64,000 nucleotides of DNA, from positions 2,864,893 to 2,928,892 of the forward strand of contig OZ242323.1 in the NCBI GenBank assembly GCA_965208165.1, given 5' to 3'. The DNA comes from Vicinamibacterales bacterium. Lineage in GTDB: Bacteria > Acidobacteriota > Vicinamibacteria > Vicinamibacterales > UBA8438. A program made the translations under genes and the position numbers. The notes beneath the pieces are model-generated. The model worked only from the letters and a program-made list of their open reading frames with translations. It had not been told where the DNA came from and searched no databases. This document shows positions 8,386-61,619 of this stretch, piece by piece (position 1 is the stretch's first letter; each line of letters begins with the position of its first letter).

Positions 8386-9624
8386 ATGAACGTCGATCCG
8401 ACGCGGCGCCGCTTCCTCCACACCCTGGCCGTCGGCAGCGTCATCCGGCCGGTGCTCGCCGGCCGCCCCGCGGCGGCGCAGTCGGGCGAGTCGTTCTGGG
8501 AGGAGGTCCGCCGGCAGTTCGCGTTCCGCGAGGAACGGGTGCCGATGAACGCGGCGAACCTGTGCCCGTCGCCCCGGGCGGTGGGCGAGCGGGTGAGCGC
8601 GCTGACCCGCGACATCGACGTCGACTGCTCGTTCCCGAACCGCGCCAAGTTCGGCCCCCTGCTCGAGGCGTCGCGCGAGGCGGTGGCGGCGCAGCTCGGG
8701 GTCACCGCGGACGAGATCGCCCTCGTCCGGAACACGAGCGAGGCCAACAACGTCGTCAACGCGGGGCTCCCCCTCGACGCGGGCGACGAGGTCGTGGTGT
8801 GGGACCAGAACCACCCGACCAACAACGTCGCGTGGGAGGTGCGGGCGGCGCGCTACGGGCTGGCGGTGAAGCGGGTGGCGACGCCAGCCGCCCCGTCGGG
8901 CGTGGACGAGCTGATCGACGTCTTCGAGCGCGCCCTGACCCCGCGCACGCAGGTGCTGGCGCTGACTCACGTCTCGAACGTGAGCGGCGTACGGCTTCCG
9001 GTGCGCGAGCTGTGCGACATCGCCCACCGCCGCGGCATCCACGTCCACGTCGACGGCGCGCAGAGCTGGGGCGCCCTCGACGTCGACCTGCGCCACCTCG
9101 GCTGCGACTCCTGGACGGGCAGCGCCCACAAGTGGTTCCTCGGGCCGAAGGAGGTCGGGCTGCTCTACGTCCGCGCCGACCGCGTGGCGGACATCTGGCC
9201 GAGCATCGTCGCCCCGAGCTGGGGCGGCGAGGTCGAGCCCCGCCCCCGCGGCGCCCGGAAGTTCGAGTCGCTGGGCCAGCGCGACGACGCGGCCCTCGCC
9301 GCCGTCGCCACGACGGTGGCGTTCCACGACCGCCTGGGCATGGCGCACGTCGAGGCGCGCATCGTCGAGCTCGCGACGGTGCTGAAGACCGGACTCGCCG
9401 AGGCCGGCTTCGAGCTCGTCACGCCGATGGCGCCCGAGCTGAGCGGAGGTGTCGTGATCGCCGCCCGTGCCCCGGATCGGCGGGGTTCCCTGGTGACCGC
9501 GTTGTACGAGCGGTACGGCATCGCCGGGGCCGCCACCGGCGGGCTGCGCCTCTGCCCGCACGTCTACAACACCCTCGAGCACGTTCGTCGCGCGGTTCAC
9601 GGTGCGGCGGCGCTCCGGGCGTGA
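8386..9624 (+). CDS. Class V aminotransferase-fold PLP enzyme (cysteine desulfurase / isopenicillin-N epimerase-like) with Tat signal
   Basis: 412 aa with SD AAGGAG upstream. N-terminus MNVDPTRRRFLHTLAVGSVIRPVLAGRPAAAQ carries a twin-arginine motif. PLP-lysine block SAHKWFLGPKEVGLLYV. Confidence 0.8.
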   Translation: MNVDPTRRRFLHTLAVGSVIRPVLAGRPAAAQSGESFWEEVRRQFAFREERVPMNAANLCPSPRAVGERVSALTRDIDVDCSFPNRAKFGPLLEASREAVAAQLGVTADEIALVRNTSEANNVVNAGLPLDAGDEVVVWDQNHPTNNVAWEVRAARYGLAVKRVATPAAPSGVDELIDVFERALTPRTQVLALTHVSNVSGVRLPVRELCDIAHRRGIHVHVDGAQSWGALDVDLRHLGCDSWTGSAHKWFLGPKEVGLLYVRADRVADIWPSIVAPSWGGEVEPRPRGARKFESLGQRDDAALAAVATTVAFHDRLGMAHVEARIVELATVLKTGLAEAGFELVTPMAPELSGGVVIAARAPDRRGSLVTALYERYGIAGAATGGLRLCPHVYNTLEHVRRAVHGAAALRA

Positions 9625-9809
9625 CGACTCCGACGTCAGCCCCTGGCGGCGCTCCGGGCGTGACGCCCCCGACGTCAGCCCCTGGCGGCGCTCCGGGCGT
9701 GACGCCCGCGACGTCAGCCCCTGGCGGCGCTCCGGGCGTGACGCCCGCGACGTCAGCCCCTGGCGGCGCTCCGGACGTGACGCCCCCGACGTCAGCCCCT
9801 GGCGGCGCC
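9606..9809 (+). repeat. 39-bp tandem repeat x5.2 that reiterates the last codons plus TGA stop of the upstream gene
   Basis: Units start at 9606, 9645, 9684, 9723, 9762 (partial unit at 9801). Unit: ggcggcgctccgggcgtgacgcccccgacgtcagcccct. Unit 1 contains the real stop (TGA 9622-9624). Confidence 0.95.
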
Positions 9810-10289
9810 CCGCATTGCACCGAGGCCTCGACCGGTACGCCGGCGCGTGGCAAGCGCGCCCGCAGGCCGAGGCCGCATAGGGTCGGCGCCACCGTCAAGG
9901 AGCGATCAGCGCCCCGGCGAGCGTCAGGAGCGCCCGCGGGCCGAGGCGCGCCTATGCCTGGCAAGGGGTAAAGAGGGCGCAAGTTGGGTATATTGCAGCC
10001 GCGAACTGCATGTGCGGCACGGCAACCGCAGCCTTGAAGAGGTAGCCGCCCCCGGCAAGCAGCCCGTCCGGCCAACCCAACCGGAGGTCTGCGCCGATCA
10101 CGCCAACCTCCGGCGGGCGTCGTCGGGCGGCAATCGGAGGCCGTTGCGCGACCCTGCGGTCGCGTGGGGAGTTTCGCCGGCCCTGAGCTCCTGCGGTGAC
10201 GATTGCCGGGCCCCAAGCGGGATGCACCGCCGCTCGAATGCAGCGGAGACCCCCACCGCGCGCTGCCGACCGACCGAGACGGGACGCCC

Positions 10290-12044
10290 ATGATGGAATC
10301 GAACGCCGCCGACACCACCCGAGGCATCCGCTACGAGCCCGACGAGCAGCCGCCGCACGCCCTCGCCCTGGGGCTGGGATTCCAGTACGCGATGCTCGCC
10401 GTCGCGGGAATCGTCGTGACCCCCGCCATCGTGGTGCGGGCGGCCGGCGCCGGCGAGGACTACCTGACGTGGGCGGCCTTCGCCGCGCTCGCGATCAGCG
10501 GCGTCACCACGGTGTTCCAGGCCCTCCGCGTCGGCCAGATCGGCTCGGGCTACATCCTGATGATGGGCACCTCGGGCGCCTTCATCGCGGTCTGCGTCAC
10601 CGCCCTCGCGGAAGGGGGGCCGGGGATGCTCGCGTCGCTGGTCGCGGCCTCGGCCCTGGTGCAGTTCGCCCTCTCGGTTCGGCTCGCGCTGCTGCGGCGA
10701 CTCTTCACGCCGACCGTGTGCGGCACCGTGATCATGCTGATCGCGGTGACCGTCATGCCCATCGTCTTCGACATGCTGACCCAGGTGCCGGAGGGGGCCT
10801 CACCGGCCGCGGCCCCCGTCAGCGCCGCCGTCACGATCGTCGTCACCGTCGCGGTGACCCTGCGCGCGGCCGGCGTCTGGCGCCTCTGGGCGCCGGTCAT
10901 CGGCATCGTCTCGGGCTGCGTGGTCGGCGCCGCCTATGGCATCTACGACACCCGGCTCATCGCCGAGGCGGGCTGGATCGGCCTGCCCGCGGGCGACTGG
11001 CCCGGGCTCGACCTGAGCTTCGGGGTGACCTTCTGGTCCCTCCTGCCCGCGTTCGTCTTCGTGACCCTGATCGGGGCCATCGAGACCATCGGCGACAGCG
11101 TCGCCATCCAGCGGGTGTCCTGGCGGAAGCCGCGGGCCGTCGACTTCCGCGCGGTGCAGGGCGCGGTGGCGGCGGACGGGCTGGGCAACCTGCTCTCCGG
11201 GCTCGCGGCCACGGTGCCGAACACGACCTACTCGTCGAGCATCGCGGTGGCCGAGATCACGGGGGTGACCTCGCGCCTCGTCGGCGTGTACATCGGCGCC
11301 GTCTTCGTGGGCCTGGCGTTCCTGCCCAAGTTCATGGGGCTCATCCTCGCGATCCCGGGCCCCGTGGTCTGGGGCTACACCGTCGTTCTGCTGTCCGTGC
11401 TGTTCGTGCTCGGCATGAAGGTGGTGGTGCAGGACGGCATCGACTACCGCAAGGGAGTGGTGGCCGGCGTCGCGTTCTGGGTCGGCACGGGGTTCCAGCA
11501 GCAGTGGATCTTCCCCGAGGCCCTCGGCCCGTGGTGGGGAGGGCTGCTCGGGAACGGCATGACCGCGGGCGGCCTCGCCGCGATCCTCATGACCGCGTTC
11601 CTCGAGCTCGCGCAACCACGGCCTCGACGCATCCGGACCGACCTGAACGTCGACGCCTACCCGAAGATCGACGAGTTCCTCGCCGAGTTCTCGGCCCGGC
11701 ACGGCTGGAGCGAGGCCATGGCCGACCGGGTGCGCGCGGTCGGCGAGGAGACGCTGCTGACCCTCACCAAACCCGCCGAGGAGGGCGCGACGCCCGACGG
11801 ACGGCACCTGCTGCTGACCGCCCGCCGCGACGGGCTCGCCGCGGAGCTGGAGTTCGTGGCCGCGACCGACGACTCGAACATCGAGGACCAACTGGCGCTG
11901 CTCGGAGACCGGAGCGGCGACGCGCCGGGCGACCGCGAGGTCTCGCTGCGGCTGCTGCGCCACTTCGCCTCGTCGGTGCGCCACCAGCAGTACCACGACA
12001 CCGACGTGGTGACCGTCCGCGTCGAGCCGAGGGCCGCCGCCTGA
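10290..12044 (+). CDS. NCS2-family nucleobase (xanthine/uracil-type) permease with extra soluble C-terminal domain
   Basis: In frame with the 613-aa track ORF; start moved to ATG 10290 (MMESNAAD...). Multi-TM body with NCS2-like blocks (GLGFQYAMLAVAGIVVTPAIV, IETIGDSVAIQ, TTYSSSIAVAEITGV). The last ~135 aa are hydrophilic. Confidence 0.75.
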   Translation: MMESNAADTTRGIRYEPDEQPPHALALGLGFQYAMLAVAGIVVTPAIVVRAAGAGEDYLTWAAFAALAISGVTTVFQALRVGQIGSGYILMMGTSGAFIAVCVTALAEGGPGMLASLVAASALVQFALSVRLALLRRLFTPTVCGTVIMLIAVTVMPIVFDMLTQVPEGASPAAAPVSAAVTIVVTVAVTLRAAGVWRLWAPVIGIVSGCVVGAAYGIYDTRLIAEAGWIGLPAGDWPGLDLSFGVTFWSLLPAFVFVTLIGAIETIGDSVAIQRVSWRKPRAVDFRAVQGAVAADGLGNLLSGLAATVPNTTYSSSIAVAEITGVTSRLVGVYIGAVFVGLAFLPKFMGLILAIPGPVVWGYTVVLLSVLFVLGMKVVVQDGIDYRKGVVAGVAFWVGTGFQQQWIFPEALGPWWGGLLGNGMTAGGLAAILMTAFLELAQPRPRRIRTDLNVDAYPKIDEFLAEFSARHGWSEAMADRVRAVGEETLLTLTKPAEEGATPDGRHLLLTARRDGLAAELEFVAATDDSNIEDQLALLGDRSGDAPGDREVSLRLLRHFASSVRHQQYHDTDVVTVRVEPRAAA

Positions 12045-12288
12045 GTACCCGGGGGCTCGTGGCGAGAACCCCGGGATCCGGCCCGGGCGCCCGGCGGGGG
12101 AGCCTGTGCCTTCGTTGCGGTCGCCGCCGAACTGCCCGTCACGGAGTTGGCCGCTTCCCACCGGGGGGCGGCGGCGCGCCGACGGACGCTGACGGATACT
12201 ACCCTGCCACGCGCCGGGCGCCCGAACGGCAGGAACGGGTTGCGCCCGGTACGGTTGGCAACCTCAGTACCGATCACTGTCCTGCGGC

Positions 12289-13248: not shown

Positions 13249-13273
13249 GACGATATCGTAGCCCGGACAGCGC

Positions 13274-13311
13274 CGCCCCGGGAGTCTCGCGGCAACGAGA
13301 CTCCCGGGGCG
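13274..13311. other. Perfect 16-bp-stem hairpin/palindrome in the arginase-porin divergent region
   Basis: CGCCCCGGGAGTCTCG-cggcaa-CGAGACTCCCGGGGCG. The GGGAGTC/GACTCCC core resembles the hairpin of the dispersed repeat family. Confidence 0.9.
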
Positions 13312-13503
13312 GCCGCGGGGTCGCGCTGCGGCGTCCACCGCGTTGCGACGCCCCACCACCACCCTTCCGAGGGAGTCGCTCCGGCGGGAAGCAGAAAGGC
13401 AAAGCGCGGCCGCGGGGTCGCGCTGCGGCGTCCGCCGCCTTGCGACGCCCCCACCGACCCTTCCGAGGGAGTCGCTCCCGCGGGAAGCCACGGAAAGGCA
13501 AGA
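13310..13503. repeat. 97-bp tandem direct repeat x2
   Basis: cggccgcggggtcgcgctgcggcgtcc...cttccgagggagtcgctcc..gcgggaagc starts at 13310 and again at 13407, with a few substitutions. Confidence 0.9.
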
Positions 13504-13585
13504 CCGTGATGCCGCGAGTTTCGCGCTCTCTCGCCGCCGCGCGCGACCACGCCCCGCCGGACGCGTGTTAAGTTAGACGGAGCAC

Positions 13586-14932
13586 ATGCTCCGCGGCGCA
13601 GCCGGTACGGCCCCCCGCCGGCAGACAGACAAGGGCCGGCGGCCGGCGCCGCGATCATCCGTGGGCGGCGCGCTCGCGCTGGCCCTCGGCTGGTCCCTCG
13701 CCGGGCCCGCCCACGCCCAGTCGACCGATCCCGGACAGCCGCGCTTCGCCGTCACCGGCCGCCTCCACTGGGACGCGGCCATCTACCGGCGCGTCGACCA
13801 CGCCGGCGCCGGCGTCGGCCCCCGGGAGGCCCGGCCCCTGCCCCGCCGCGCCCGTCTCGGCGCGGGCGGCGGGGCCGGCCGCTTCTCCTGGGTCTTCGTC
13901 GTCGACGCCGACGGCGACCGCGACGGCCCCGCCCGGGCGGTGGAGATCGAGGACGCCGCCGTCCACTACTCGCCGTCGGATGGGATCAGGCTCGGCGTCG
14001 GGAGGATGAAGATCCCGGTGACGTTCGCGGAGAGCGTCTCGTCGAACGACATCGCCTTCATCGAGCGCGCGCTGCCCGTCGACGCGTTCACCGACGAGCC
14101 GCTCGGCCCGAAGGTGACCAACGCCCAGGTCTGGATCTACGGCCGCCACCACCTCGTCGAGGCGGCGGTTCACCTCGCACGCGATGCCGCGGCGGGGCCG
14201 GAGCCCGACGCTCGTGCAAAGAAGCTCGGGGTCACCGGGCGGGCGGCGTTCGCCCCCGTTCGGACCGCGACGAAGGCGTTGCACCTGGGCGGCTGGGCGG
14301 ACCGCTCCGCCGGCCCCGTGGACGCGGCGCGATGGGGCTTCGGGCCCGAGCTGGAGGCTGCGGACGGCCCGACCCTGACCGGCCGACGGCCCGACGGGAC
14401 GCTGGCGTCGCTGGTCCACGGGGGCCTCGAAGCCGCGTGGCTCGACGGCCCGTTCTGGGCGCAGGCCGAGGTGATGGGAGGGCGGTTCCGTCGAGCCGAC
14501 AGGACCGACTACGCGGCCGGCGGATGGTACGCCCAGGTCGGGTACGTGGCGGGCGGCGCCCGCGGCTACGACATGCAGGAGGGAGCCTGGTCGCCGGTCG
14601 CCGTCACCGAGGCGGCGACTGCCGGAGGCATCGGTACCGTGGAGCTCGCGCTGCGCTACAGCCGCGTCGACTTCGGCGAGCCGGTGACCCCCACCGAGAC
14701 CCGGCCGGTGGGCGGCACCGGGCACGCCGGGCGTCAGTCGAACGTGACCGCGGGAGTCAACTGGCACCTCACCGGCCACAGCCGGCTGATGTTCAACGTG
14801 ATCCACGTCGACCTCGACGGCGCCTTCGGCCGCCGCGGGTCCGGCGCCGCGGACGGCACGCCGGGGTCGACCGCGGCGCCCGTCACAGACGCTTTCCGAA
14901 TCTACGGCATGCGCTGGCAGTACAGCTGGTGA
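13586..14932 (+). CDS. Outer-membrane porin, phosphate-selective porin O/P-like
   Basis: 448 aa, GGAG 5 nt upstream of the ATG. Signal peptide ends AHAQ. Beta-rich sequence with aromatic C-terminus ...FRIYGMRWQYSW. Family assignment is by general pattern only. Confidence 0.55.
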   Translation: MLRGAAGTAPRRQTDKGRRPAPRSSVGGALALALGWSLAGPAHAQSTDPGQPRFAVTGRLHWDAAIYRRVDHAGAGVGPREARPLPRRARLGAGGGAGRFSWVFVVDADGDRDGPARAVEIEDAAVHYSPSDGIRLGVGRMKIPVTFAESVSSNDIAFIERALPVDAFTDEPLGPKVTNAQVWIYGRHHLVEAAVHLARDAAAGPEPDARAKKLGVTGRAAFAPVRTATKALHLGGWADRSAGPVDAARWGFGPELEAADGPTLTGRRPDGTLASLVHGGLEAAWLDGPFWAQAEVMGGRFRRADRTDYAAGGWYAQVGYVAGGARGYDMQEGAWSPVAVTEAATAGGIGTVELALRYSRVDFGEPVTPTETRPVGGTGHAGRQSNVTAGVNWHLTGHSRLMFNVIHVDLDGAFGRRGSGAADGTPGSTAAPVTDAFRIYGMRWQYSW

Positions 14933-14957
14933 CGAGCTGAGGCCGGCGTCCAACGAC

Positions 14958-15375
14958 AAGCCGACCGTCATCAAGAGGAACCTGCGGGGACCGGCCCGAC
15001 GACGCCATTCGTACCGCGCTCCGCCAGGGAGGCGCCATTACGGACCGCCGTCCCGCGTCCGCACCTGCCGGGCCCACGAGCGGTTCGCGACGTACCAGTC
15101 GACGAGCCGCTTCACGCCGTCCCGCCACGCCGTACGCGGCTCCCAGTCGAGCAGCCGCTTCGCCTTCAAGCCGACCGTCATCAAGAGGAACCCGCGGGGA
15201 CCGGCCCGACGGCGCCATTCGTACCGCGCTCCGCCAGGGAGGCGCATCACGGACCGCCGTCCCGCGTCCGCACCTGCCGGGCCCACGAGCGGTTCGCGAC
15301 GTACCAGTCGACGAGCCGCTTCACGCCGTCCCTCCACGCCGTACGCGGCTCCCAGTCGAGCAGCCGCTTCGCCTT
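14958..15375. repeat. ~209-bp tandem duplication spanning the 3' end and stop of the epimerase gene plus ~80 bp downstream
   Basis: 14958-15166 is near-identical to 15168-15375. The distal copy keeps a 43-codon C-terminal fragment (KAKRLLDWEPRTAWRDGVKRLVDWYVANRSWARQVRTRDGGP) ending in TAA at 15038, versus TGA at 15247 in the intact gene. Confidence 0.95.
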
Positions 15376-16236: not shown

Positions 16237-16240
16237 GTGC

Positions 16241-19397: not shown

Positions 19398-19471
19398 GGG
19401 AGTCTGCGCCGCGGAACCGCGCGTACTCCCGGAGATTGGTTGGCGCCGGGCGAAGCCGAAGGCGACGGGGC
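19398..19471 (+). repeat. Copy of the ~80-nt hairpin repeat family (opposite orientation to flanking genes)
   Basis: GGGAGTCTGCGCCGCGGAACCGCGCGTACTCCC + GGAGATTGGTTGGCGCCGGGCGAAGCCGAAGGCGACGGGGC. Its tail touches the glnB stop (cta 19471-19473). Confidence 0.8.
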
Positions 19472-22978: not shown

Positions 22979-23085
22979 CCGCGAACGGGGCGCACACCGC
23001 GGACCGTAACGTCCCCGGCCGGGACCGCTCCCACCGCAGCCATCGGCGGGCCAAGACGAGATGACGCAGTCCACGGGAGATCCGC

Positions 23086-23235
23086 CAGCGCCGGTCTCGG
23101 ATCCGCTCCCCGCTCGTCAGGAAAGCGAAGGCGGGATGATGCCGTCGACGGATGCGCCGCCGGCGCCAGTGTCGGATCCGCACCGTGCTCGTCGGGAAGG
23201 CGAAGACGGGATGATGCCGTCGACGGACCCGCCCG
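23086..23235 (+). repeat. 75-bp (25-codon) tandem duplication x2 covering the start-codon region of the ABC ATPase gene
   Basis: tcggatccgc anchors at 23097 and 23172. Both units end with gggATGATGccgtcgacgga (ATG at 23136 and 23211). Confidence 0.9.
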
Positions 23236-25537: not shown

Positions 25538-25984
25538 GTGGGCGCCGCGTCACCACGTGCCACTCTGGTCCGCTACACGCTCTACCAGATCCCGGAATGG
25601 GTGCTGGCGGTGGTCGCCGCCATCCTGCTCTACCGGTGGGGCGTCCTGCCGGGCTGGGCCGCGGCCCTGCTCGTGGCGGGCGTGATGGCCAAGGACGCGG
25701 CGCTGTATCCGCTGCTGCGGACCGCCTACGAGAACGACACCTCGACCGCGATCGAACGTCTCGTCGGGCTGCGCGGGGTGGCCGTCGAGCCGCTCGCGCC
25801 GCAAGGCTACGTGCGGGTCCGCGGCGAGCTCTGGCGCTCGGAGGCGCCGGCGGCCGGACGCGAGATCCGCCCTGGCCATCCCGTGACCGTCCAGGCGGTA
25901 CGGGGCACGACGCTGCTGGTCTGCCCCGCGCCGCCGCTCGCGGGGGCCCGGAACCTCGAAAAGAGCGCCGCAGAGGGACGATAA
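25538..25984 (+). CDS. NfeD-family membrane protein (C-terminal OB-fold)
   Basis: 148 aa, GTG start. Two TM helices, then GLRGVAVEPLAPQGYVRVRGELWRSEA...IRPGHPVTVQAVRGTTLLV, the NfeD OB pattern. Confidence 0.6.
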   Translation: MGAASPRATLVRYTLYQIPEWVLAVVAAILLYRWGVLPGWAAALLVAGVMAKDAALYPLLRTAYENDTSTAIERLVGLRGVAVEPLAPQGYVRVRGELWRSEAPAAGREIRPGHPVTVQAVRGTTLLVCPAPPLAGARNLEKSAAEGR

Positions 25985-26382
25985 GCCGAATTCTGTACCC
26001 GCCCCCGCCCGCGAACGGACAGGCGCCAGGCGACGACCATTCCTCTAGCCCCGCCATCGCTGGCGGGGTCGAGCAACCTACCCGGAGGCTTCGGACGGGC
26101 CGCCCTCGAACGCCTCCCTATTCGGTCTTGCTCCGTGCGGGGTTTAGCCTGCCATCCGCCTTGCGGCGGACGCGGTGCGCTCTTACCGCACCTTTTCACC
26201 CTTACCGCCCGGCGAACCGTTAACCGGCACGCCGGGAGGCGGTATGTTTTCTGTGCCACTTTCCTTCAGGTCGCCCTGACCGGGGATTACCCGGCGCACT
26301 GCCCTCCGGAGTTCGGACTTTCCTCCCCACCCGATGCCCCGAAGGGCACCGCGTGCAGCGGTCGCCTGTCCCTCTGCGGCGC
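25965..26382 (-). ncRNA. rnpB: RNase P RNA, bacterial type A
   Basis: The minus strand carries GGGAGGAAAGTCCGAACTCC, GGTAAGGGTGAAAAGGTGCGGTAAGAGCGCACCGCG, GAGCAAGACCGAATAGGG, CCGGGTAGGTTGCTCGA and ACAGAATTCGGCTTAT in the order seen in E. coli M1 RNA. P1 pairs GCCGCAGAGGGAC (5') with GTCCCTCTGCGGC (3'), followed by CTCTTTTC. Ends are +/-5 nt. Confidence 0.93.
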
Positions 26383-26419: not shown

Positions 26420-26498
26420 GCCCGCCAATCGCCGCCTGCGGCTCCGATTGGCGCCCAGCCAACCCTGCCGGCAGCCTGCACCGCCCACGGCGCGCGCT
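26420..26498 (-). repeat. Degenerate copy of the ~80-nt hairpin repeat family
   Basis: gcccgccaatcgccgcctgcggctccgattggcgcccagccaaccctgccggcagcctgcaccgcccacggcgcgcgct aligns along its length with the copy at 26612-26693. Confidence 0.75.
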
Positions 26499-26613
26499 GC
26501 TAGTGTCCCGTATCAGTGGTTCGCGAAATAATTCAGGGCGACTCTTCTTCCCGGGTCACGGGCGTTCTCACCCATGCGAGATATTTCGCGAACTTCGCTG
26601 GCAGGACACTAGC
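26499..26613. other. 115-bp inverted-repeat element (MITE-like or structured RNA), lower GC
   Basis: Outer arms GCTAGTGTCC (26499-26508) / GGACACTAGC (26604-26613). Inner arms GTTCGCGAAATA (26519-26530) / TATTTCGCGAAC (26582-26593), each containing the palindrome TTCGCGAA. The ~50-bp core is unique. Confidence 0.7.
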
Positions 26614-26693
26614 CCGCCCATCGTCGCCTTCGGCTCCGCTGGGCGCCCAACCAACCCTGCCAGGAGTCTGCACCGTTCTACGGCGCAGACTCC
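26612..26693 (-). repeat. Copy of the ~80-nt hairpin repeat family directly after the stop of the NtrC-type gene
   Basis: Minus strand reads TAG-GAGTCTGCGCCGTAGAACGGTGCAGACTCC-TGGCAGGGTTGGTTGGGCGCCCAGCGGAGCCGAAGGCGACGATGGGCGGGC. Confidence 0.85.
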
Positions 26694-28063
26694 TAGGCGT
26701 CCGCATCCTGCGAGATCCCGTACTGCTCCAGCTTCTTGTAGAGATTGCTGCGCGGGGTGTCGATGACCTCCGCCGTCCTCGAGATGTTCCAGCCGTGCTC
26801 GCGCAGCTTGTCGATGAGGAACGCGCGCTCCGCCCGCTCCTTGAACTCGCGCAGGGTGCCGGCCTGACTCGCGGCGAGGCCCGCCGCGCCGTCCCGGACC
26901 CCCGTCCGCACCACCGCGCGGACGTCGCCCACCTCGATGGTCTCGCCCGGGGTCATCACCAGCAGGCGCTCCACGGTGTTCCTCAGCTCGCGGATGTTCC
27001 CCCGCCACCGCTCCCCGGCCAGCGCCGCTGTCGCGGCCGGGGTGAAGTCGCGGGGCCGGAAGTTGTTGTCCCGGCAGAACAGCGCCGTGAAGTGGCGGAC
27101 GAGCCGCGGAATGTCCTCCCGCCGGTCGCGCAGCGGCGGCACCCGGATCGGGATGACGCTGAGCCGGAAGTAGAGGTCCTCGCGAAAGCGCTCGTTGTCG
27201 ATGTCCGCCTCGAGGTTCCGGTTGGTGGCCGCGAGCACGCGCACGTCGACCTCGATGGTCCGGGCCGAGCCGAGCCGCTCGACCTCTCCCTCCTGCAGCA
27301 CGCGCAGCACCTTGGCCTGGGTGCGGAGACTCATGTCGCCGACCTCGTCGAGGAAGATGGTGCCGCGATCGGCCTGCTCGAACTTGCCGATCTGCTTCTG
27401 GGTCGCTCCCGTGAACGCGCCCCGCTCGTGCCCGAACAGCTCCGACTCGATCAACTCTTCGGGCAGCGCGGCGCAGTTCACCTGCACGAACCGCTCGCGG
27501 CCCCGCCGGCTGTTGCGGTGAATGGCCCGCGCCACCAGCTCCTTCCCGACGCCGCTCTCCCCCTGGATGAGCACCGTGCTCGTCGTTGGCGCGGCCCGCC
27601 CGATCGCGTCCGTCACCCCTCGCAGGGCCGGGCTCTCCCCCACCATCTCGTGACGGATCTCGGCGAGCGCGCGGTAACGGCTGACCTCGGTCTTGAGCCG
27701 GTGCTGCTCCAGGGCGTTCCGGATGTTGACCTTGAGGACGTCCCCCTCGAACCCCTTCTCGAGAAACGTGAACGCGCCCTGCTTCGTCGCCTCGACCGCG
27801 GTGCTGATGGTGCCGTGGCCGGAGATGACGATCACGGGGACGGGGTCGCCGCGCTCCCGCAGGCGCCGCAGGACCTCCAGGCCGTCCATCCCCGGCATCT
27901 TCACGTCGAGCAGCACGAGGTCGACGCTCTCGGCGCCGAGCAGGTCGAGGCCTTCGCGGCCGCTGCGCGCGAACAGGCACTCGTAGCCCTCGTACTCGAG
28001 AGTCATCTTGAGGGCGTCGCGCACCCCCTCGTCGTCGTCGACCACCAGAATACGCTCGGTCAT
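26693..28063 (-). CDS. Sigma-54-dependent response regulator (NtrC/AtoC family), no adjacent histidine kinase
   Basis: Receiver domain ([14 protein letters not shown] ... [11 protein letters not shown]), AAA+ sigma-54 interaction domain ([30 protein letters not shown]) and a Fis-type HTH ([25 protein letters not shown]). GTG 28066 and ATG 28063 are both possible starts. Confidence 0.9.
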
Positions 28064-33859: not shown

Positions 33860-34040
33860 TCGCCGGGGGTCCGAGTCGCAGAAGTGCGCGCCAGCGACTA
33901 CTCCCGCCGCGCCCGCGAGGCCGTGCCCAACCGAGTCGCAAGAGTTCCGCGCCAGCGACACTCTCGACGCGCCCACAAGGCGGTGCCCGACCAAGTCGCA
34001 AAGTCTCGCGCCAGCGAGACTTCCAACGCGACCGTCAGGT
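33860..34040. repeat. 60-bp tandem repeat x3 downstream of radC
   Basis: (g/a)agtcgca anchors at 33873, 33933, 33993. Each unit has a short AGTCGC...GCGAC(T) hairpin that decays from copy to copy. Confidence 0.85.
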
Positions 34041-35010: not shown

Positions 35011-35245
35011 GCCCGCCCATCGTCGCCGGCGGCTCCGCTCGGCGCCCCACCCGACCCGCCGGGAGTCAGCGCCGTTTCACGACTCCCAGCCCGCCCATCG
35101 TCGCCGGCGGCTCCGCTCGGCGCCCCACCCGACCCGCCGGGAGTCAGCGCCGTTTCACGACTCCCAGCCCGCCCATCGTCGCCGGCGGCTCCGCTCGGCG
35201 CCCGACCGACCCTCGGGGAGTCAGCGCCGTCTTCACGGCGCGGGC
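35011..35245 (-). repeat. Three tandem 78-bp units of the hairpin repeat family; the last unit overlaps the dapF stop codon
   Basis: gcccgcccat anchors at 35011, 35089, 35167. The final hairpin is GGAGTCAGCGCCGT-cttc-ACGGCGCGGGCTCC, whose right arm is the dapF terminal codons (QEPAP-stop, tca at 35233). Confidence 0.9.
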
Positions 35246-37462: not shown

Positions 37463-38290
37463 TCAGACGGCCGCCGCCTCGCCGGAGGACGGCGCCGCCG
37501 GGAGGGATGCGGCCAAGCCCGCCCGAAGCTCCGACACCGGGTTCAGGCGCCGGTCGAGCAGGTGACGCCCGGCGACGTTGCCGAGCGCCTTCAGCATCGA
37601 CTGCTTCACCCCCGGATGCTCCCGTTCGAGGTCGAGCAGCAGCCGCTTGACGCGCTGCCTCTGCAGCCCCAGGTCGCCGCAGGCCGGACAGCAGCAGCCG
37701 ATCACGGGCAGGCCCGCCTGCCGGGTATAGTCCCGCGCCTCCTCCTCGCTGACGTAGGCCAGTGGGCGAACGACCACGTGGCGTCGATCGTCGGAAACCA
37801 GGCGGGCCGGCATCGCCTTCAGGGCCCCGGCGAAGAACAGGTTCAGCAGCAGCGTCTCGATGAAATCGTCGGCGTGATGCCCGAGGGCGATCTTGGTTGC
37901 CCCCACCTCGCCGGCGATTCGGTACAGGACGCCGCGCCGGAGGCGGGCGCAGAGCGAGCAGGGGGTCGCCCGCTCGTCGAGCTTGTCGTCGATGATCGCG
38001 CCGATCGTCGTGTGCTCGACCCGCAGCTCCCAACCCCGCTCCTCGCAGGCCCGCTCGAGCTCGTCGTGCCGGTAGTCGCGATAACCCGAATGCACGTTCA
38101 CCGCCACCAGGGTGAAGTCGATCGGCGCCCGCCGCCGCAGCGCGTCCAGCAACTGCATCAGGGCCCAACTGTCCTTGCCGCCGGACAGGCCGACCATGAC
38201 CCGATCGCCGTCCTCGATGAGCTCGAAGTCGACGATGGCCTTGGTCACCCTGCGGGCCAGCTTCTTCTCGAGTGCGCTCTCGTACGCCAT
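37463..38290 (-). CDS. ttcA: tRNA 2-thiocytidine biosynthesis protein TtcA (PP-loop ATPase)
   Basis: ATG 38290 (MAYESALEKKLARRV...). PP-loop GLSGGKDS and Cys clusters CSLCARLRRG and CCCPACG. The track ORF over-extends through the repeat array. Confidence 0.85.
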   Translation of the reverse strand: MAYESALEKKLARRVTKAIVDFELIEDGDRVMVGLSGGKDSWALMQLLDALRRRAPIDFTLVAVNVHSGYRDYRHDELERACEERGWELRVEHTTIGAIIDDKLDERATPCSLCARLRRGVLYRIAGEVGATKIALGHHADDFIETLLLNLFFAGALKAMPARLVSDDRRHVVVRPLAYVSEEEARDYTRQAGLPVIGCCCPACGDLGLQRQRVKRLLLDLEREHPGVKQSMLKALGNVAGRHLLDRRLNPVSELRAGLAASLPAAPSSGEAAAV

Positions 38291-38409
38291 GACTGTGCCG
38301 TCGGGGTGTCGTGCCGCAGACCGGTCCGGCGGGCGGTGCGCCGCAGTCCCGGCGCCCGGCGAACGCGCTCCCCGGGCCGCTGCGATCCAAGTCCATGATA
38401 CGACGAAAA

Positions 38410-38803
38410 GCGGCGGGTGGAGCAGTCCGCGCCGTCCTGCGCCCGGACGCCGAATCAGTCGAGGAACGTCCGGGGACCAGCGCTCGATCACCATCGGGCC
38501 GAACAGAAGCGGCGGGCGGAAGCAGTCCGCGCCGTTTCTGCGCCCGGACGCCGCATCGGTCGAGGAACGTCTGGGACCAGCACTCGAGCACCATCAGGCC
38601 GAGCAGGAGCGGCGGGCAGTCCGCGCCGTTCTGCGCCCGAACGCCGCATCAGTCGGGGAACGTCCGGGGACCAGCGCTCGAGCACCATCAGGCCGAGCAG
38701 GAGCGGCGGGCGGAAGCAGCCCGCACCGTCCTGCGCCCGGACGCAGAATCAGTCGAGGAACGTCTGGGACCAGCGCTCGAGCACCATCAGGCCGAACAGG
38801 AGA
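38410..38803. repeat. ~93-101-bp tandem repeat x4 reiterating the last 18 codons plus stop of the AsnB-like gene
   Basis: tca/tcg-gtc(g)agg anchors at 38455, 38556, 38649 and 38749 (the real stop). Each unit is [~47-nt spacer with GCAGTCCGCGCCGT..CTGCGCCCGGAC hairpin] + [tcagtcgaggaacgtctgggaccagcgctcgagcaccatcaggccgaacagga]. Confidence 0.9.
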
Positions 38804-43789: not shown

Positions 43790-44169
43790 AGGCCAGCCCG
43801 CCCGTCGAGGCCTGACGGCGTCGCTGGACGCCCGACCGACCTCCAGGGTCCGCGCCGTGCTACGGCGCAGACTACGGCGTCGCTGGACGCCCGACCGACC
43901 TCCAGGGTCCGCGCCGTGCTACGGCGCAGACTACGGCGTCGCTGGACGCCCGACCGACCTCCAGGGTCCGCGCCGCGCTACGGCGCAGACTACGGCGTCG
44001 CTGGACGCCCGACCGACCTCCAGGGTCCGCGCCGTGCTACGGCGCAGACTACGGCGTCGCTGGACGCCCGACCGACCTCCAGGGTCCGCGCCGTGCTACG
44101 GCGCAGACTACGGCGTCGCTGGACGCCCGACCGACCTCCAGGGTCCGCGCCGTGCTACGGCGCAGACTC
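43790..44169 (-). repeat. Hairpin-family copy followed by a 59-bp sub-unit repeated x6; the last unit contains the GMC gene stop
   Basis: tcgctggacg anchors at 43821, 43880, 43939, 43998, 44057, 44116 (period exactly 59). Unit: acggcgtcgctggacgcccgaccgacctccagggtccgcgccgtgctacggcgcagact. One substitution in copy 3. Confidence 0.95.
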
Positions 44170-45732
44170 CTGGCGCGCAGCCCCCTGCGTCCCCCGCGCC
44201 GCCATCTCGCCGGGACCGCAGCGGAGCTCCGTCCCCCGGATGTGATCGGCCGCCCGAAGGGCCTGGGCGACGATGGTCAGGCCCGGGTTGACGGCCGCCG
44301 ACGACGGAAAGAACGACGCATCGACGACGAAGAGGTTCTCGACGTCGTGCGACCGGCACCAGGGATCGAGCACGGAGCGCCGCGGATCGGTCCCGAAGCA
44401 CAGGGTGCCGCACTGGTGGGTCGTGTTGTGGATCGACCGCGGATGGACGTAGACGATCCCGAGCCCGAGCCGGCGCAGCATCCGCCGGACCTCGCGGACG
44501 AGCCGGTCGTGCGCGCGCACGTTGTTCGGGCGGTAGTCCAGCCGGATGCGCCCGCCGGCGTCGACCGTCACCCGGTTGTCGGGCCGGGGCAGGTCCTCGG
44601 TCATCGCGAGCCAGTCGAGCCCCCGCGCCACCCAGTAGTCGAAGAAGCCCAGCGGCATCCACGGGACGGCGGTCTGGGCCATGACCCCGTGGGTCCGCCC
44701 CTGGGACTGGATCTGCCCGAGCGGGTACCCCCCGTCCGGCCCCTCGAGATAGAAGTCGTTGATCGCCACCGTCTTCTGGAACTCGGTGTGGTTGCGGCGG
44801 AACGGATGGAACCCCGCCATCATCGTCGCGAGGTGCGCCATGTAGCGCCGCCCCACGAGACCCGAGGAGTTCGCGAGGCCGCGCGGGTGCTTCCCGTCGG
44901 CCGACTGCAGCAGCAGCCCCGCCGAGTTGACCGCCCCGCACGACAGGACCACGAGGGACGCCTCGACCCGGCGCCGCTCGCCGGCGTGGTCGACCTCCAC
45001 CGCCTCGACCCGGCGGCCGCCGGGGTCCGTCAGCAGGCGCCGGGCCCGCGCCCCGGTCCACAGGGTGACGTTGTCGCGCCCGGCCGCGGGACGCACGCAG
45101 CAGACGTCGGCGTCGCTCTTCGCGTCGCGGTGGCAGGGAAACGAGTTGCACGTGTTGCACAGGATGCAACGCCCTGGCTCTCCCGGCCCCCGGAGCCCCA
45201 GGGGCAGAGGCGAGGGATGGAGACCCTGCTCGCGGATGCGGGCCACCCAGGCCTCCACCTGCTCCGCGTGAGGAACCGCGGCGTGCGGGAAGGGCTTCCG
45301 CGGGGCCTCGGTCGGATCCGCACCGGCGGTCCCGTGCACCTCGTACAGCCGCTCCGCCCGCTCGTAGTACGGCTCGAAGGCATCGTAGTCGACCGGCCAG
45401 GCCGGCGAGACCCCGTCGACGTGCTCCGTCTCGCCGAAGTCCTCGCGGCGCATCCGGAAGAGGACGCTGCCCCAGAACTTGGTGTTGCCCCCGACGCAGT
45501 AGTGCATGTACGGGCGGAAGGGCTTGCCATCGCCGTCCAGCCAGCGCTCCGACGTCTGGTAGCGCCGATGCTTCCAGACCGCCGCGGGGTCGCGGTTCTC
45601 GGGCTCCAGGGGCACGAAGCGGCCCCGCTCGAGCAGCAGGATGCGGGCCGGGGAGTCGGCCAGGGCGCGGGCCACGGTGCCGCCCCCGGCGCCGGTCCCG
45701 ATGATGACGACGTCGTAGCGCTCGCTCGGCAT
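44155..45732 (-). CDS. GMC-family FAD oxidoreductase
   Basis: 525 aa. N-terminal YDVVIIGTGAGGGTVARALAD FAD motif. C-terminal catalytic region ...HQCGTLCFG... Confidence 0.8.
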   Translation of the reverse strand: MPSERYDVVIIGTGAGGGTVARALADSPARILLLERGRFVPLEPENRDPAAVWKHRRYQTSERWLDGDGKPFRPYMHYCVGGNTKFWGSVLFRMRREDFGETEHVDGVSPAWPVDYDAFEPYYERAERLYEVHGTAGADPTEAPRKPFPHAAVPHAEQVEAWVARIREQGLHPSPLPLGLRGPGEPGRCILCNTCNSFPCHRDAKSDADVCCVRPAAGRDNVTLWTGARARRLLTDPGGRRVEAVEVDHAGERRRVEASLVVLSCGAVNSAGLLLQSADGKHPRGLANSSGLVGRRYMAHLATMMAGFHPFRRNHTEFQKTVAINDFYLEGPDGGYPLGQIQSQGRTHGVMAQTAVPWMPLGFFDYWVARGLDWLAMTEDLPRPDNRVTVDAGGRIRLDYRPNNVRAHDRLVREVRRMLRRLGLGIVYVHPRSIHNTTHQCGTLCFGTDPRRSVLDPWCRSHDVENLFVVDASFFPSSAAVNPGLTIVAQALRAADHIRGTELRCGPGEMAARGTQGAARQESAP

Positions 45733-46783: not shown

Positions 46784-46864
46784 GCCCGCAATTCGTCGCC
46801 TGCCGTTCCGCTTGGCGCCCACCAGCCCTCCCGGGAGTCCGCGGCGTCCTGCGGCCCAGGCTCC
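46784..46864 (-). repeat. Copy of the ~80-nt hairpin repeat family between the GT2 and Gfo/Idh/MocA genes
   Basis: Minus strand reads GGAGCCTGGGCCGCAGGACGCCGCGGACTCCC-GGGAGGGCTGGTGGGCGCCAAGCGGAACGGCAGGCGACGAATTGCGGGC. It ends 5 nt before the ATG at 46779. Confidence 0.75.
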
Positions 46865-50436: not shown

Positions 50437-50931
50437 TCAGGCAGGAGAGTCCGCACCGTTCCGCGGCGCGGACCCCTGGGGGGCCGATTCGCGGGAGACC
50501 GCCTGGAGGGACTTCACCATCACCACCTCCATGCCCCCCTCCGGCGCCCGCCCGATGCGCACCTCGTCCATGAGGCTGCGCATGAAGAAGATGCCCCGGC
50601 CGCTCGACTTCAGCAGGTTCTCGGGGGCCAGGGGATCGGCAATCTCGACCGGGTCGAAGCCGTCGCCCTGGTCGACGACCCGCACCGTCAATCGCTTCGG
50701 ATCGGACGGGGGGGCCAGCCCGAACTCGACGGTGACGAGCTTGTCCTCGATGTCCCGGTTCCCGTGCTTGATGGCGTTGATCACGGATTCGCGGACCGCC
50801 ACCCCGATCCAGTGAATCGAGTCGCCGTCGAATCCGACGATCTTCCCCAGCTCGTCGCTGACGACCTGGACGAAGTCCACCATGTCGAAGTGACTGCGGA
50901 ACGTCAGACGAACGACAGGGTCGCTGGTCAT
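50437..50931 (-). CDS. RsbW/SpoIIAB-like anti-sigma regulatory factor (HATPase_c-type Ser kinase)
   Basis: ATG 50931 (MTSDPVVRLTFRSHFDMVDFV...). N-box AVRESVINAIKHGN, G-box VVDQGDGFD, SSGRGIFFM. Confidence 0.7.
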   Translation of the reverse strand: MTSDPVVRLTFRSHFDMVDFVQVVSDELGKIVGFDGDSIHWIGVAVRESVINAIKHGNRDIEDKLVTVEFGLAPPSDPKRLTVRVVDQGDGFDPVEIADPLAPENLLKSSGRGIFFMRSLMDEVRIGRAPEGGMEVVMVKSLQAVSRESAPQGSAPRNGADSPA

Positions 50932-51168: not shown

Positions 51169-52491
51169 ATGTCGTCCGTCGTCGTGCAACCCGCCGCCCG
51201 TGTCCGCGGCCGCGTCCCGGTACCCGGCGACAAGTCGATCTCGCATCGCTACGCGCTGCTCGCCGCGCTGGCCGAGGGCCGGTCGACCATCGCCGGCTAC
51301 GCGCCGGGGGCCGACTGCGCCTCCACCTTGGCGTGCCTCCGCGCACTCGGGGTCCGCGTGGAGGGGCCCCGATCAGCCGGCGGGGCGACCGGCCGGCCGG
51401 TCGTGATCGTCGACGGCCGCGGCGTCGGCGGCCTCGGAGCGCCGACGGGGCCCCTGGATGCCGGCAACTCCGGCACGACCCTCAGGCTGCTGTCCGGCGC
51501 TCTCGCCGGCCATCGGTTCACCAGCGTCATCACCGGGGACGGCTCGCTCCGCCGCCGGCCGATGCGCCGGATCATCGAGCCCCTCTCGCGGATGGGGGCG
51601 CGGGTGACGGGCGACGGGGGTTGCCCGCCCCTCACCATCGCCGGCTCGCGGCTCGAGGGCATCGACTACACGCCGCCGGTCCCGAGCGCCCAGGTCAAGA
51701 GCGCGGTGCTCCTGGCCGGGCTCCACGCGTCGGGCGACACCACGGTGAGAGAGACCGCCGCCACCCGGAACCATACGGAGCTGGCCTTGCCGATGTTCGG
51801 CGCCGAGCTGCGTCGGGTCGACGGCGGCGTCACGCTGCGCGGCGGACAGCGCCTGCGGGCGGCCGGGCTGACGGTGCCCGGCGACCTGTCGTCCGCCGCG
51901 TTCTGGGCGACCGCCGCCGCCGCCCTGCCCGGCTCGGACGTCACCCTCGAGGACGTGGGGCTCAACCCCACCCGCACGGGCATCCTCGCCTGGCTCCGGC
52001 GGGCGGGGGCGGTCGTGGACCTGCTGCAGGTCATCGAGGACACCGGCGAGCGGCAGGGCTCCATCCGGGTCCGCCACGGCGGCAATCGCGCGCTCACGGT
52101 GGGGCCGGCGGACGTGCCGGGGCTCATCGACGAGCTGCCGGTGCTGGCGGCGCTGGCCACGCATGGCGGCGAGCTGCGCGTGACCGGCGCCGGAGAGCTG
52201 CGGCACAAGGAGAGCGACCGCATCAGCGCGCTGGCCGACGGCCTGCGCGCGCTCGGAGGACACGTCGAGGAGGTGGCGGACGGCTTCCACGTCGCCGGCG
52301 CCCGGCCGCTTCGGGGCGGCGAGGCCGACGCGGCCGGCGACCACCGGCTCGCGATGGCGTTCGCCATCGCCGCCCTCGGCGCCCGGCAGCCGAGCCGAAT
52401 CCGCAACGCCGAGGCCGTCGACGTGTCCTACCCGGGCTTCTTCGATGTGCTGGCGGCCCTCTGCATCCCCAGGCAGCAGTCCGCGCCGTGA
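51169..52491 (+). CDS. aroA: 3-phosphoshikimate 1-carboxyvinyltransferase (EPSP synthase)
   Basis: VPGDKSISHRYALLAALAEG, LDAGNSGTTLRLL, LRHKESDRI blocks. The last codons (QQSAP-TGA) form the left arm of a repeat hairpin. Confidence 0.9.
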   Translation: MSSVVVQPAARVRGRVPVPGDKSISHRYALLAALAEGRSTIAGYAPGADCASTLACLRALGVRVEGPRSAGGATGRPVVIVDGRGVGGLGAPTGPLDAGNSGTTLRLLSGALAGHRFTSVITGDGSLRRRPMRRIIEPLSRMGARVTGDGGCPPLTIAGSRLEGIDYTPPVPSAQVKSAVLLAGLHASGDTTVRETAATRNHTELALPMFGAELRRVDGGVTLRGGQRLRAAGLTVPGDLSSAAFWATAAAALPGSDVTLEDVGLNPTRTGILAWLRRAGAVVDLLQVIEDTGERQGSIRVRHGGNRALTVGPADVPGLIDELPVLAALATHGGELRVTGAGELRHKESDRISALADGLRALGGHVEEVADGFHVAGARPLRGGEADAAGDHRLAMAFAIAALGARQPSRIRNAEAVDVSYPGFFDVLAALCIPRQQSAP

Positions 52492-52640
52492 ATCGGCGCG
52501 GACTGCCGCGGACTGGTTGGGCGCCAGGCGGAGCCGCCGGGCGACGATTGGAGGGCGAGGAGTCCGCGCCGTGGAACGGCGCCGACTCCGGCAGGATTGG
52601 CCGGGCGCCAAGCGGAGCCGTCAGGCGACGATTGGAGGGC
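52476..52640 (+). repeat. Two tandem copies of the ~80-nt hairpin repeat family in the aroA-aroK spacer
   Basis: Copy 1: CAGTCCGCGCCG-tgaat-CGGCGCGGACTG (perfect 12-bp stem containing the aroA stop) + ...GGTTGGGCGCCAGGCGGAGCCGCCGGGCGACGATTGGAGGGC. Copy 2: GGAGTCCGCGCCGT-ggaa-CGGCGCCGACTCC + ...GATTGGCCGGGCGCCAAGCGGAGCCGTCAGGCGACGATTGGAGGGC. Confidence 0.9.
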
Positions 52641-52679
52641 GAGCCGCCCCCGGTTCCGGCCCGGACGCGGCGTCTGCCG

Positions 52680-54161: not shown

Positions 54162-54193
54162 GCCTCCCGCGGCCCTCGACGCCCGCGGGAGGC
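54162..54193. terminator. 11-bp perfect GC hairpin between convergent genes (candidate bidirectional terminator)
   Basis: GCCTCCCGCGG-ccctcgacgc-CCGCGGGAGGC. No U-tract. Confidence 0.4.
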
Positions 54194-54200
54194 AACGGGG

Positions 54201-54356: not shown

Positions 54357-54370
54357 CGTCGGGGGAAGCC

Positions 54371-56782: not shown

Positions 56783-57001
56783 TCGGCTCTCAACACCCGG
56801 CCGGTCCAGACGCGAGAGCCCCGGCCCGCGGCCCCGACCCTCCGCGAGACCCCGGGAGCCCATGGTGAAGGAACCGGGATTCGACCGGCCGGGCGCCGGG
56901 CGCCCCGTCGATCCGCCGGCGCCCTCCGGGAGCGGTGCAACCCGGTGCCTCACGAGCTCGCAGCCGGTTGCAAGTCACCAATCGAGCCCCGAGCGCCGCG
57001 A

Positions 57002-58860: not shown

Positions 58861-58864
58861 GGAG

Positions 58865-61372: not shown

Positions 61373-61504
61373 CGTGATTAGACCTCGCGGAGGAGTGTTC
61401 GAAGGCCCGCCCCGAGCGGGCGGGGCCTCCCCTGACGGAGGAGGGGCGATCCGCGGACCGCCCCCGCCGAAGCTCGACTCCCGTCGGAACGCCGAGGAAC
61501 TCCA

Positions 61505-61585
61505 GCCCGCCGATCGTCGCCCGCGGCTCCGCTCGGCGCCCTACCAATCCGGCAGGAGTCCGCGCCCTTCCACGGCGCCGACTCC
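61505..61585 (-). repeat. Copy of the ~80-nt hairpin repeat family downstream of ccmE
   Basis: Minus strand reads GGGAGTCGGCGCCGTGGAAGGGCGCGGACTCC-TGCCGGATTGGTAGGGCGCCGAGCGGAGCCGCGGGCGACGATCGGCGGGC. Confidence 0.85.
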
Positions 61586-61586
61586 C

Positions 61587-61619
61587 AGTAGCTCGACGCC
61601 GCTAGTAGCTCGACGCCGC
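61587..61619. repeat. 16-nt perfect direct repeat (period 17) duplicating the terminal codons of ccmE
   Basis: agtagctcgacgccgc at 61587-61602 and 61604-61619. The ccmE stop (cta) is at 61602-61604. Confidence 0.9.

Follow-up and report, generated by a model that had tools for sequence, protein, structure and literature searches.

Repeats that gather at the ends of bacterial genes have been described in several forms. Repetitive extragenic palindromes (REPs) and bacterial interspersed mosaic elements (BIMEs) are short, perfect, multicopy palindromes that lie mostly past the 3' end of the upstream open reading frame (ORF), often supply its TAG stop codon, and differ in content between close relatives. 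They occur as singletons, dimers or clusters reiterated in tandem with flanking DNA (Di Nocera et al. 2013, PMC3733652). Other known systems include the mycobacterial interspersed repetitive units typed as variable-number tandem repeats (MIRU-VNTR), which are dispersed 40–100-nt intergenic units arranged head to tail in a high-GC genome, with strain-variable copy number, the bacterial minisatellites, and the Rickettsia palindromic elements (RPEs), which are translated as parts of host proteins. Here, a 64,000-nt stretch of the chromosome of a Vicinamibacterales bacterium is considered (contig OZ242323.1, positions 2,864,893 to 2,928,892; hereafter the window), with a G+C content of 70–75% and ten tandem arrays, named A1 to A10, many of which include the end of a gene. 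The most probable explanation, which we would hold at about three to one, is that two known processes overlap at gene ends: a REP-like element, called element 1, that sits on stop codons, and ordinary tandem duplications that are kept at gene boundaries.

The arrays were detected with Tandem Repeats Finder (TRF) on the window; stop positions were taken from ORF ends, and the units were aligned. Seven arrays (A1, A3, A6, A7, A8, A9 and A10) enclose the coding stop of the class-V pyridoxal phosphate (PLP) enzyme, epimerase, DapF, AsnB-like, GMC oxidoreductase, AroA and CcmE genes, respectively. An earlier reading made from the letters alone (the sequence-only reading) had listed seven of the ten, all but A2, A5 and A9. 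TRF recovers each of them in its place, and Pfam confirms the identities of the genes (Aminotran_5, Epimerase, Asn_synthase+GATase, GMC_oxred, DAP_epimerase, CcmE and ABC_tran). The ORF ends and unit alignments also show that stop codons fall within the arrays, that the gene-proximal ORF stays intact and that unit lengths are unequal.

The arrays are real, because independent assemblies from other samples, together with a short-read scaffold and short-read contigs, reproduce them and the junction of A3. Same-species assemblies were found via exact matches to the epimerase and D-Tyr-tRNA deacylase proteins; exact-protein look-ups of the 241-aa ABC protein and the 343-aa TtcA ORF of the window returned no match. 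The assemblies found, L096 (ERZ21861969, 99.5% identical) and L081/L097 (ERZ25084387), are independent and have 98–99.5% identity to the window, and the comparison covers the sites of A1 to A8. L096 carries 2.9, 4.0 and 6.0 copies in A6, A7 and A8, as in the window, and A2 to A4 are the same in L081/L097. In the short-read scaffold L098, A6 is crossed without a gap and has 2.9 copies, and 3.2 units of A7 are covered. The short-read contigs L082 and L083 both open on the final 55 nt of the A3 unit, which run straight into its head; this is the duplication junction. A1, A5 and A6 are true VNTRs, with copy numbers that differ within the species: A1 has 5.3 copies in the window vs. 3.3 in L081, A5 has 2.7 vs. 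7.5 in L096 and L097, and A6 has three units vs. four in L097.

Element 1 is a dispersed family of about 84 nt with 16 copies at eight sites in the window (nhmmer). Its main hairpin is perfect, with a stem of 15–17 bp and a length of 33–37 nt, and has the consensus CTAGGAGTCTGCGCCG-TAGAA-CGGCGCAGACTCCTAG. After a spacer of about 14 nt comes a weaker second hairpin (GGGCGCC..GCGGAGCCG..GGCGACGAT.GGCGGGC), which is formed by a conserved tail of about 45 nt that travels with the main hairpin. Folding z-scores are -6.8 (hairpin) and -4.5. The element shares its orientation with the upstream gene, except for the copy at 19399-19467, and the next start follows at a varying distance (110–500 nt), or else the genes are convergent. 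Inverted repeats are absent from the two ends of the 84-nt unit (GGAGTC... and ...GGGCGGGC); the hairpin alone could be read as two abutted terminal inverted repeats. Its flanks are TAG on both sides of the copy at 26612-26695, and TGG/TGG and TAG/TGA at other copies.

The relation of element 1 to the reading frame is very constant. One frame reads TAG GAG TCN GCG CCG TAG/TGA and holds two in-frame stops; the other two frames are open throughout. In every case, in the window and in relatives, the upstream ORF ends at hairpin offset +1 or +16. The stop in the loop is used by DapF, GMC and AroA, which end in ..QEPAP, ..QESAP and ..QQSAP, respectively, and the TAG at the base is used by the sigma-54 regulator in the window and by RadC in six relatives. 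The element supplies the stop codon at six of nine sites in the window. Two more sites, the solo hairpin at 50446-50478 and the one at ccmE, share this frame, in which the element is read or abutted. Scanned for a 21-mer of the hairpin, metagenomes yielded at least 130 exact matches in at least 120 contigs, with 122 non-internal sites. Among the matches listed, an upstream coding ORF ends in the stop frame of the element at 59 of the 122 sites (44 at the base TAG and 15 in the loop), and ORFs enter via the other two frames in four and four cases, so 59 of 67 ORF-abutting sites share one frame. TAG directly precedes GAGTC in 87 of the 130 matches listed. Tandem copies form 20 dimers and two trimers among 217 clusters in the metagenome loci (about 10%).

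These data establish the identity of the element and its stop-codon frame. As one frame is used at many unrelated loci, the apparently reiterated last codons at dapF, GMC and aroA are element sequence, and the element supplies the stop. The sequence-only reading had regarded the arrays as independent of the dispersed family and the repeated codons as copies of gene ends. For the GMC and dapF arrays, neither view can be kept: both are tandem element copies by nhmmer, and what is repeated is the element hairpin, which ends genes at many unrelated loci. The claim of independence fails in part at two further genes, since the ccmE array directly abuts an element hairpin and the AsnB-like unit holds a decayed one. 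The suggestion of insertion at gene boundaries does fit the dispersed element. Read in its stop frame, element 1 ends the upstream ORF at the TAG of the hairpin base; once this TAG is lost, the ORF ends five codons later, in the loop, and acquires a tail of the form ...E(S/P)AP.

The likeness to REPs is one of structure, position and behaviour: a short, perfect palindrome in many copies, found mostly past the 3' end of the upstream ORF, often supplying its TAG, gained or lost at orthologous sites between close relatives, and present as single copies, pairs and clusters (three copies in A6, six in A8 and two in A9, as well as a decayed hairpin joined to 51 nt of asnB in the A7 unit). Stop-supplying REPs reiterated with flanking DNA have already been described. 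There are also differences. The 5' end of element 1 is CTAG, CAGG or TGGG and is base-paired, whereas REPs have an unpaired terminal GTAG or CGTC; in element 1, GTAG is confined to the loop (CCGTAGAACGG). It has a second in-frame stop in the loop and the conserved tail hairpin of about 45 nt, and its host is an acidobacterium of the Vicinamibacterales. As the REP end tag is absent and any link to a REP-associated tyrosine transposase (RAYT) would have to be sought beyond the 64-kb window and the 20-kb loci, the element is not filed in the REP super-families.

The other known systems are more distant. MIRU-VNTRs are alike by arrangement and by strain-dependent copy number, as A5 and A6 show between assemblies of this species. 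MIRUs insert at start codons and carry an internal ORF that is translationally coupled to the downstream gene (PMC12548453); element 1 sits on the upstream stop, has no evident coupling ORF, and is set apart by this description, so that membership among the MIRUs was rejected. As with RPEs and intragenic REPs, the palindrome is translated, here as C-terminal tails of 4–13 residues such as ESAP, but RPEs insert in frame within genes, while element 1 affects only the extreme C-terminus and terminates the ORF. An intrinsic terminator was also rejected, for the hairpin is followed by CTGGCAGGGTTGGTTGGGCG, without a T-run. Searches of Rfam at the gathering threshold over the whole window, and at E <= 1 over an element region, found no family but RNase P.

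The arrays A6, A8 and A9 consist of tandem copies of element 1 (nhmmer E = 1e-5 to 1e-21; unit alignments). A6 lies on the minus strand at 35011-35237 by TRF (78 nt x 2.9, 96% matches) and holds three head-to-tail element copies at 35011-35249; dapF stops at 35233-35235, on the loop TGA of the hairpin nearest to the gene. In A8 (minus strand, 43815-44168 by TRF, 59 nt x 6.0, 99%; element copies 43796-44172), six copies of a 59-nt truncated element follow one another, and the loop TAG of the first hairpin ends the GMC oxidoreductase ORF (44155-44157). A9, on the plus strand (52478-52643 by TRF, 84 nt x 2.0; element copies 52475-52640), is a pair of head-to-tail copies with the aroA stop (52489-52491) as a TGA in the first hairpin loop. 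Each array has its own peculiarities. The two distal copies of A6 are 100% identical and have a left-arm deletion in common, all six copies of A8 have the same 59-nt truncation at 99% identity, and both copies of A9 carry the atypical tail GATTGGAGGGCGAG. Because such private features are common to the copies within an array, growth by local amplification is indicated.

It could instead be that these arrays grow by repeated, targeted insertion into the TAG that flanks an existing copy, without any local duplication. In relative L002, two full tandem copies are separated by TAG (GGGCGGGC TAG GAGTC) and differ by about 20%, which fits independent insertions, and the TAGs on either side of the 26612-26695 copy and 5' of GAGTC in the metagenome would suit the same route. 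This route is nevertheless unlikely for the arrays of the window, where the deletion in A6, the truncation in A8 and the tail in A9 point to local amplification; no transposase was identified, although none was searched for, the analysis covering 64 kb of the genome. According to the preferred explanation, A6, A8 and A9 would be local amplifications of element 1, and A5 is formed by a second hairpin element.

The remaining stop-spanning arrays are of another kind. In A1 (plus strand, 9606-9812, 39 nt x 5.3, 96%), six terminal codons of the class-V PLP enzyme gene, its TGA (9622-9624) and about 20 nt of downstream DNA make up the unit. The ancestral state of A1 is seen in relative L084, in which the 1.3 copies have GGCGGCGCTCCG and GGCAGCACCCCG on their flanks and a 12-nt direct repeat, GGCGGCGC[T/C]CCG, recurs at a spacing of 39 nt. 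A flanking short direct repeat is the classic substrate of slippage. Local head-to-tail copies, the direct repeat and a series of 1.3 (L084), 3.3 (L081) and 5.3 (window) copies make A1 a slippage minisatellite in its features. In A3 (minus strand, 14957-15375, 209 nt x 2.0, 97%), the unit takes in the final 43 codons of the epimerase gene, its stop (15247-15249) and some 80 nt of the convergent spacer; the distal copy carries TAA and an insertion of 1 nt. The A7 unit (minus strand, 38408-38799, 100 nt x 4.0, 85%) holds the last 17 codons (51 nt) and the stop (38749-38751) of the AsnB-like gene, followed by about 49 nt with the decayed element-1-type hairpin. A10 (minus strand, 61587-61619, 100%) is a small duplication of the end of ccmE, in which the TAG stop (61602-61604) is formed at the junction of the units and which adjoins the element hairpin of 61505-61586. 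The array was correctly placed in the sequence-only reading, but its unit is 17 nt x 1.9 by TRF and not 16 nt.

The units of A1, A2, A3, A4 and A7 fold no better than their shuffles (z >= 0). A1, A3 and A7 are ordinary duplications of true gene ends without unusual structure, and hairpin-driven slippage was rejected for these three and for A2 and A4. Slippage at terminator-like hairpins had been put forward as a possible cause shared by all loci; the folding of the A1, A3, A4 and A7 units does not bear this out. Slippage-type duplication as such fits the class-V, epimerase, AsnB-like and ccmE arrays. A1, A3, A7 and A10 resemble bacterial minisatellites: each repeats a unique local sequence head to tail, with no dispersed counterpart, and A1 has both a direct repeat and polymorphism. 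These four would be the plain-duplication type, and in A4 the N-terminus of the ABC ATPase would have been duplicated in frame. Such duplications probably begin where short direct repeats or microhomology allow slipped mispairing or illegitimate recombination, and may then grow or shrink by slippage or unequal exchange. They could arise anywhere and would persist only where no gene is broken, with selection acting as a filter. With spacers of about 100 nt and units of 40–200 nt, many survivors would therefore include a gene end.

This expectation was compared with a null model on a curated gene map, built from the gene calls of related loci, with 53 spacers of median length 106 nt and 10.5% non-coding DNA. 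In the null, random duplications of the observed unit sizes are placed so that they break no gene. Seven of the ten arrays include a stop, vs. 3.5 expected (P(>=7) = 0.02). An enrichment of arrays at stop codons beyond geometry and purifying selection is present but modest, and it does not survive the removal of the three element arrays: four of the other seven include a stop vs. 2.45 expected, which is no significant excess. Of 24 non-element arrays in 782 kb of related contigs, only three include a coding stop. Geometry, purifying selection and the element's own position on stop codons account for the pattern.

Several observations weigh against this explanation. Only one array spans a start, whereas about 3.7 would be expected, and selection on promoters has to be assumed as the reason. 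Microhomology is weak at the junctions of A3 (8 of 12 nt, imperfect) and A7 (about 2 nt). The position of the element on stop codons may reflect targeting of TAG or survival of in-frame insertions only. Finally, arrays are 4–13 times as dense per kb in the window as in relatives, orthologous loci included, and two generic processes leave this excess unexplained.

The excess was measured against several sets of loci. A dapF-anchored scan of the species genomes of GTDB places the window in the Vicinamibacterales (Acidobacteriota), with the complete chromosomes OZ220718.1 and OZ242003.1, both metagenome-assembled genomes, among the best hits (96% DapF identity), and the gene order is kept over at least 20 kb in ten relatives (L001 to L010). 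With a threshold of period >=15 and score >=100 in TRF, the window has 1.41 arrays per 10 kb, the orthologous loci of the ten relatives 0.19, and 70 more distant Acidobacteriota loci 0.11; the 782 kb of metagenome contigs, which were selected for carrying the element, have 0.5. The density of 1.4 vs. 0.1–0.2 per 10 kb at related loci is also unusually high for VNTRs on a bacterial chromosome. The impression that seven loci in 64 kb are many is therefore confirmed against a measured baseline.

The expansions are specific to this lineage. A comparison with close relatives, as had been suggested before, shows that relatives at about 93–95% nucleotide identity to the window (L001, L002 and L095) have single copies or none. 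The A1 site has 1.3 copies in L084, and A3 is a single copy in L084–L088. A2 is present in L081 and absent from L084, L087 and L088, where the gap is 60–75 nt vs. 345 nt in the window. At the A5 site, relatives have 0–2.5 copies of either element 1 or element 2, with 2.5 copies of element 1 in L002. The A6 site has a single hairpin, and the hairpin with its loop stop is kept at dapF in L001, L002, L003 and L007. A single asnB end plus hairpin is found at the A7 site in L001–L004 and L095. The A8 site of relatives measures 18–260 nt, with one full element in L001 and none in L005, L006 and L008. At the A9 site, L090, L091 and L094 have no element and a gap of 104–106 nt vs. 269 nt in the window, and in relatives ccmE ends ...AGCTAC TAG, with neither the A10 duplication nor an element.

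Duplications may arise at a higher rate in this lineage, or be deleted at a lower one. The several-fold excess over sister species is the sole part left unexplained by known processes. A bolder possibility, which we regard as doubtful, is that the species has a heritable, several-fold raised rate of small tandem duplications concentrated at gene 3' ends, driven by the stop-parked hairpin through fork stalling or template switching. If this were true, gene ends would be continuously remodelled by stop replacement, ESAP-type tails and strain-variable arrays in 3' untranslated regions (UTRs), and the arrays would represent a lineage-specific mutational syndrome and not generic VNTR noise.

A single mechanism for all arrays is another possible account. 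Replication or repair would stall at stable post-stop hairpins and switch template, which would make gene 3' ends hot spots. The element hairpin lies in or abuts six of the ten arrays (A5, A6, A7 in decayed form, A8, A9 and A10), three of the eight element sites in the window are tandem vs. about 10% in metagenome contigs, and the stop excess and a second, unrelated array at the GMC 3' end in L003 would agree with it. This mechanism is improbable, as the units of A1 to A4 have neither exceptional structure nor the element, few non-element arrays of related contigs include a coding stop, and the stop excess loses significance without the element arrays.

Still less probable is that the arrays are selected regulatory devices at the mRNA level, that is, stacked terminators, stabilisers of 3'-UTRs or contingency loci that tune the flanking genes. 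REPs near stop codons are thought to work as RNA elements (PMC3733652), the arrays lie between co-oriented or convergent genes, and their copy number differs between strains. Against this, close relatives with the same genes lack the arrays, distal copies gather substitutions, indels and lost stops like neutral DNA, and the hairpins have neither a T-run nor an Rfam match. That the arrays are stutter from long-read assembly, as a metagenome-style source assembly and the fragmented gene calls of L097 (suggestive of indel errors) might imply, can be dismissed almost entirely, given their presence in independent long-read and short-read assemblies and the point differences among copies.

The window provides a first described REP-like family and a set of strain-variable repeat loci for the Vicinamibacterales, which are abundant and barely cultured soil Acidobacteriota; a literature search on repeats of Vicinamibacterales and on join-points of REP-mediated duplications found nothing specific. 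In long-read metagenomes, the array loci might be used to tell strains apart. There is also a warning for annotation: many genes in this clade end in repeat sequence, which makes up their stop and the four or five codons before it, and ORFs may be over-extended into arrays, as in a 343-aa call for the 275-aa TtcA and a 316-aa call for the ABC ATPase of about 266 aa. In the case of TtcA, the longest ORF (37463-38494, minus strand) starts inside A7, and homologues and conservation put the start at 38290. All ten relatives have kept a motif, CTTTCGTCGTATCATGG, about 100 nt upstream of the TtcA start, possibly a promoter or a leader.

The array at the ABC ATPase, A4 (plus strand, 23053-23227, 75 nt x 2.3, 82%), lies at the 5' end of the gene. 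Its 75-nt unit equals 25 codons in frame with the ABC ORF. The distal ATG (MTQST...) is at 23061, and gene callers start at 23211, so the called protein (265–267 aa) begins after the Pro-rich 25-aa repeat (23061-23235). An upstream ATG is in frame in the window, L081, L084, L087 and L088, with spacings of 23, 25 or 27 codons, and the repeat has one copy in L085/L086, two in L084/L087/L088 and three in the window. A4 is probably a translated, in-frame N-terminal repeat of 25 aa, judging from the conserved frame. The view in the sequence-only reading that the distal units are decaying copies of the start codon is not supported by an ATG that stays in frame across five genomes.

Two arrays are intergenic. 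A2 (13309-13488, 97 nt x 1.9) lies between the divergent arginase-family and porin genes. A5 (minus strand, 33871-34030, 60 nt x 2.7) lies in the spacer that separates the stop of radC (34053) from the start of larC, and its units are copies of another small hairpin element, called element 2. This element is also nested in element 1 in L007 and found upstream of a permease gene in the window. In the composite, element 2 (CGCGACC..GGTCGCG..GGAGTTTCGC..) sits within the tail of element 1, between GGAGGCCG and GCGACGA. Composite sites are at about 10085-10200 in the window and at 10787-10930 and 11855-12000 in L007, and the composite seems to propagate as a unit, recurring at different loci and in different species.

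Element 1 also occurs outside the arrays. The single copy at 26612-26695 (minus strand) provides, with the TAG of its hairpin base, the stop of the sigma-54 response-regulator gene (26693-26695; identity taken from the gene calls of L096), and a TAG also follows its 3' end. A degenerate copy (26420-26502, minus strand) lies 110 nt downstream and adjoins the gene of a class A RNase P RNA (25966-26377, minus strand; 291 bits, full length), which has two element-1 copies immediately upstream. The copy between ccmE and ccmF (61505-61586, minus strand) has its loop stop mutated to TGG. Between glnB and glnE, the copy at 19399-19467 (plus strand) is opposite in orientation to both genes and supplies no stop. 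A diverged copy (46784-46864, minus strand) is situated between two co-oriented genes, 88 nt past the upstream stop. The solo hairpin at 50446-50478 (minus strand) lies inside the 3' end of a HATPase_c_2 gene, in the same frame (..QGSAPRNGADSPA before the stop) and with the loop stop lost. The anti-sigma-type HATPase_c_2 protein (50437-50526, minus strand) ends ..ESAPQGSAPRNGADSPA, with two successive SAP motifs from the hairpin arms, so this coding region has absorbed element sequence.

Further observations concern the relatives. In L087, a 79-nt x 3 array of element 1 (13377-13601) overlaps the end of an arginase-family gene, at a site where the window has no element; element arrays at stops therefore arise at different genes in different species. 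The GMC 3' end of L003 (2162-2259) has an array of 18 nt x 5.4 (GGAAGGGGCGCGCGGGGT), unrelated to A8, which, its unit being a multiple of three, appears to be a 6-aa repeat before the stop and an independent second expansion at this gene end. In L095, gene calling joins the GMC oxidoreductase to the glyoxalase-family gene downstream, as a single fused ORF of 780 aa across a degenerate element copy (3060-5402). Insertion sequence (IS) transposases (DDE_Tnp_1; DDE_3 with a helix-turn-helix, HTH, domain) and an integrase fragment are found in relatives where synteny with the window breaks (L085/L086, 12400-17900; L090/L091, 13483-14571), namely at the arginase-permease block and in the spacer that separates the metallophosphoesterase gene from the shikimate kinase gene. 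In the window, an ankyrin-repeat protein gene (5344-7293, plus strand) gives the in-gene direct repeats D7 and D10, which are ordinary coding repeats and unrelated to the arrays.

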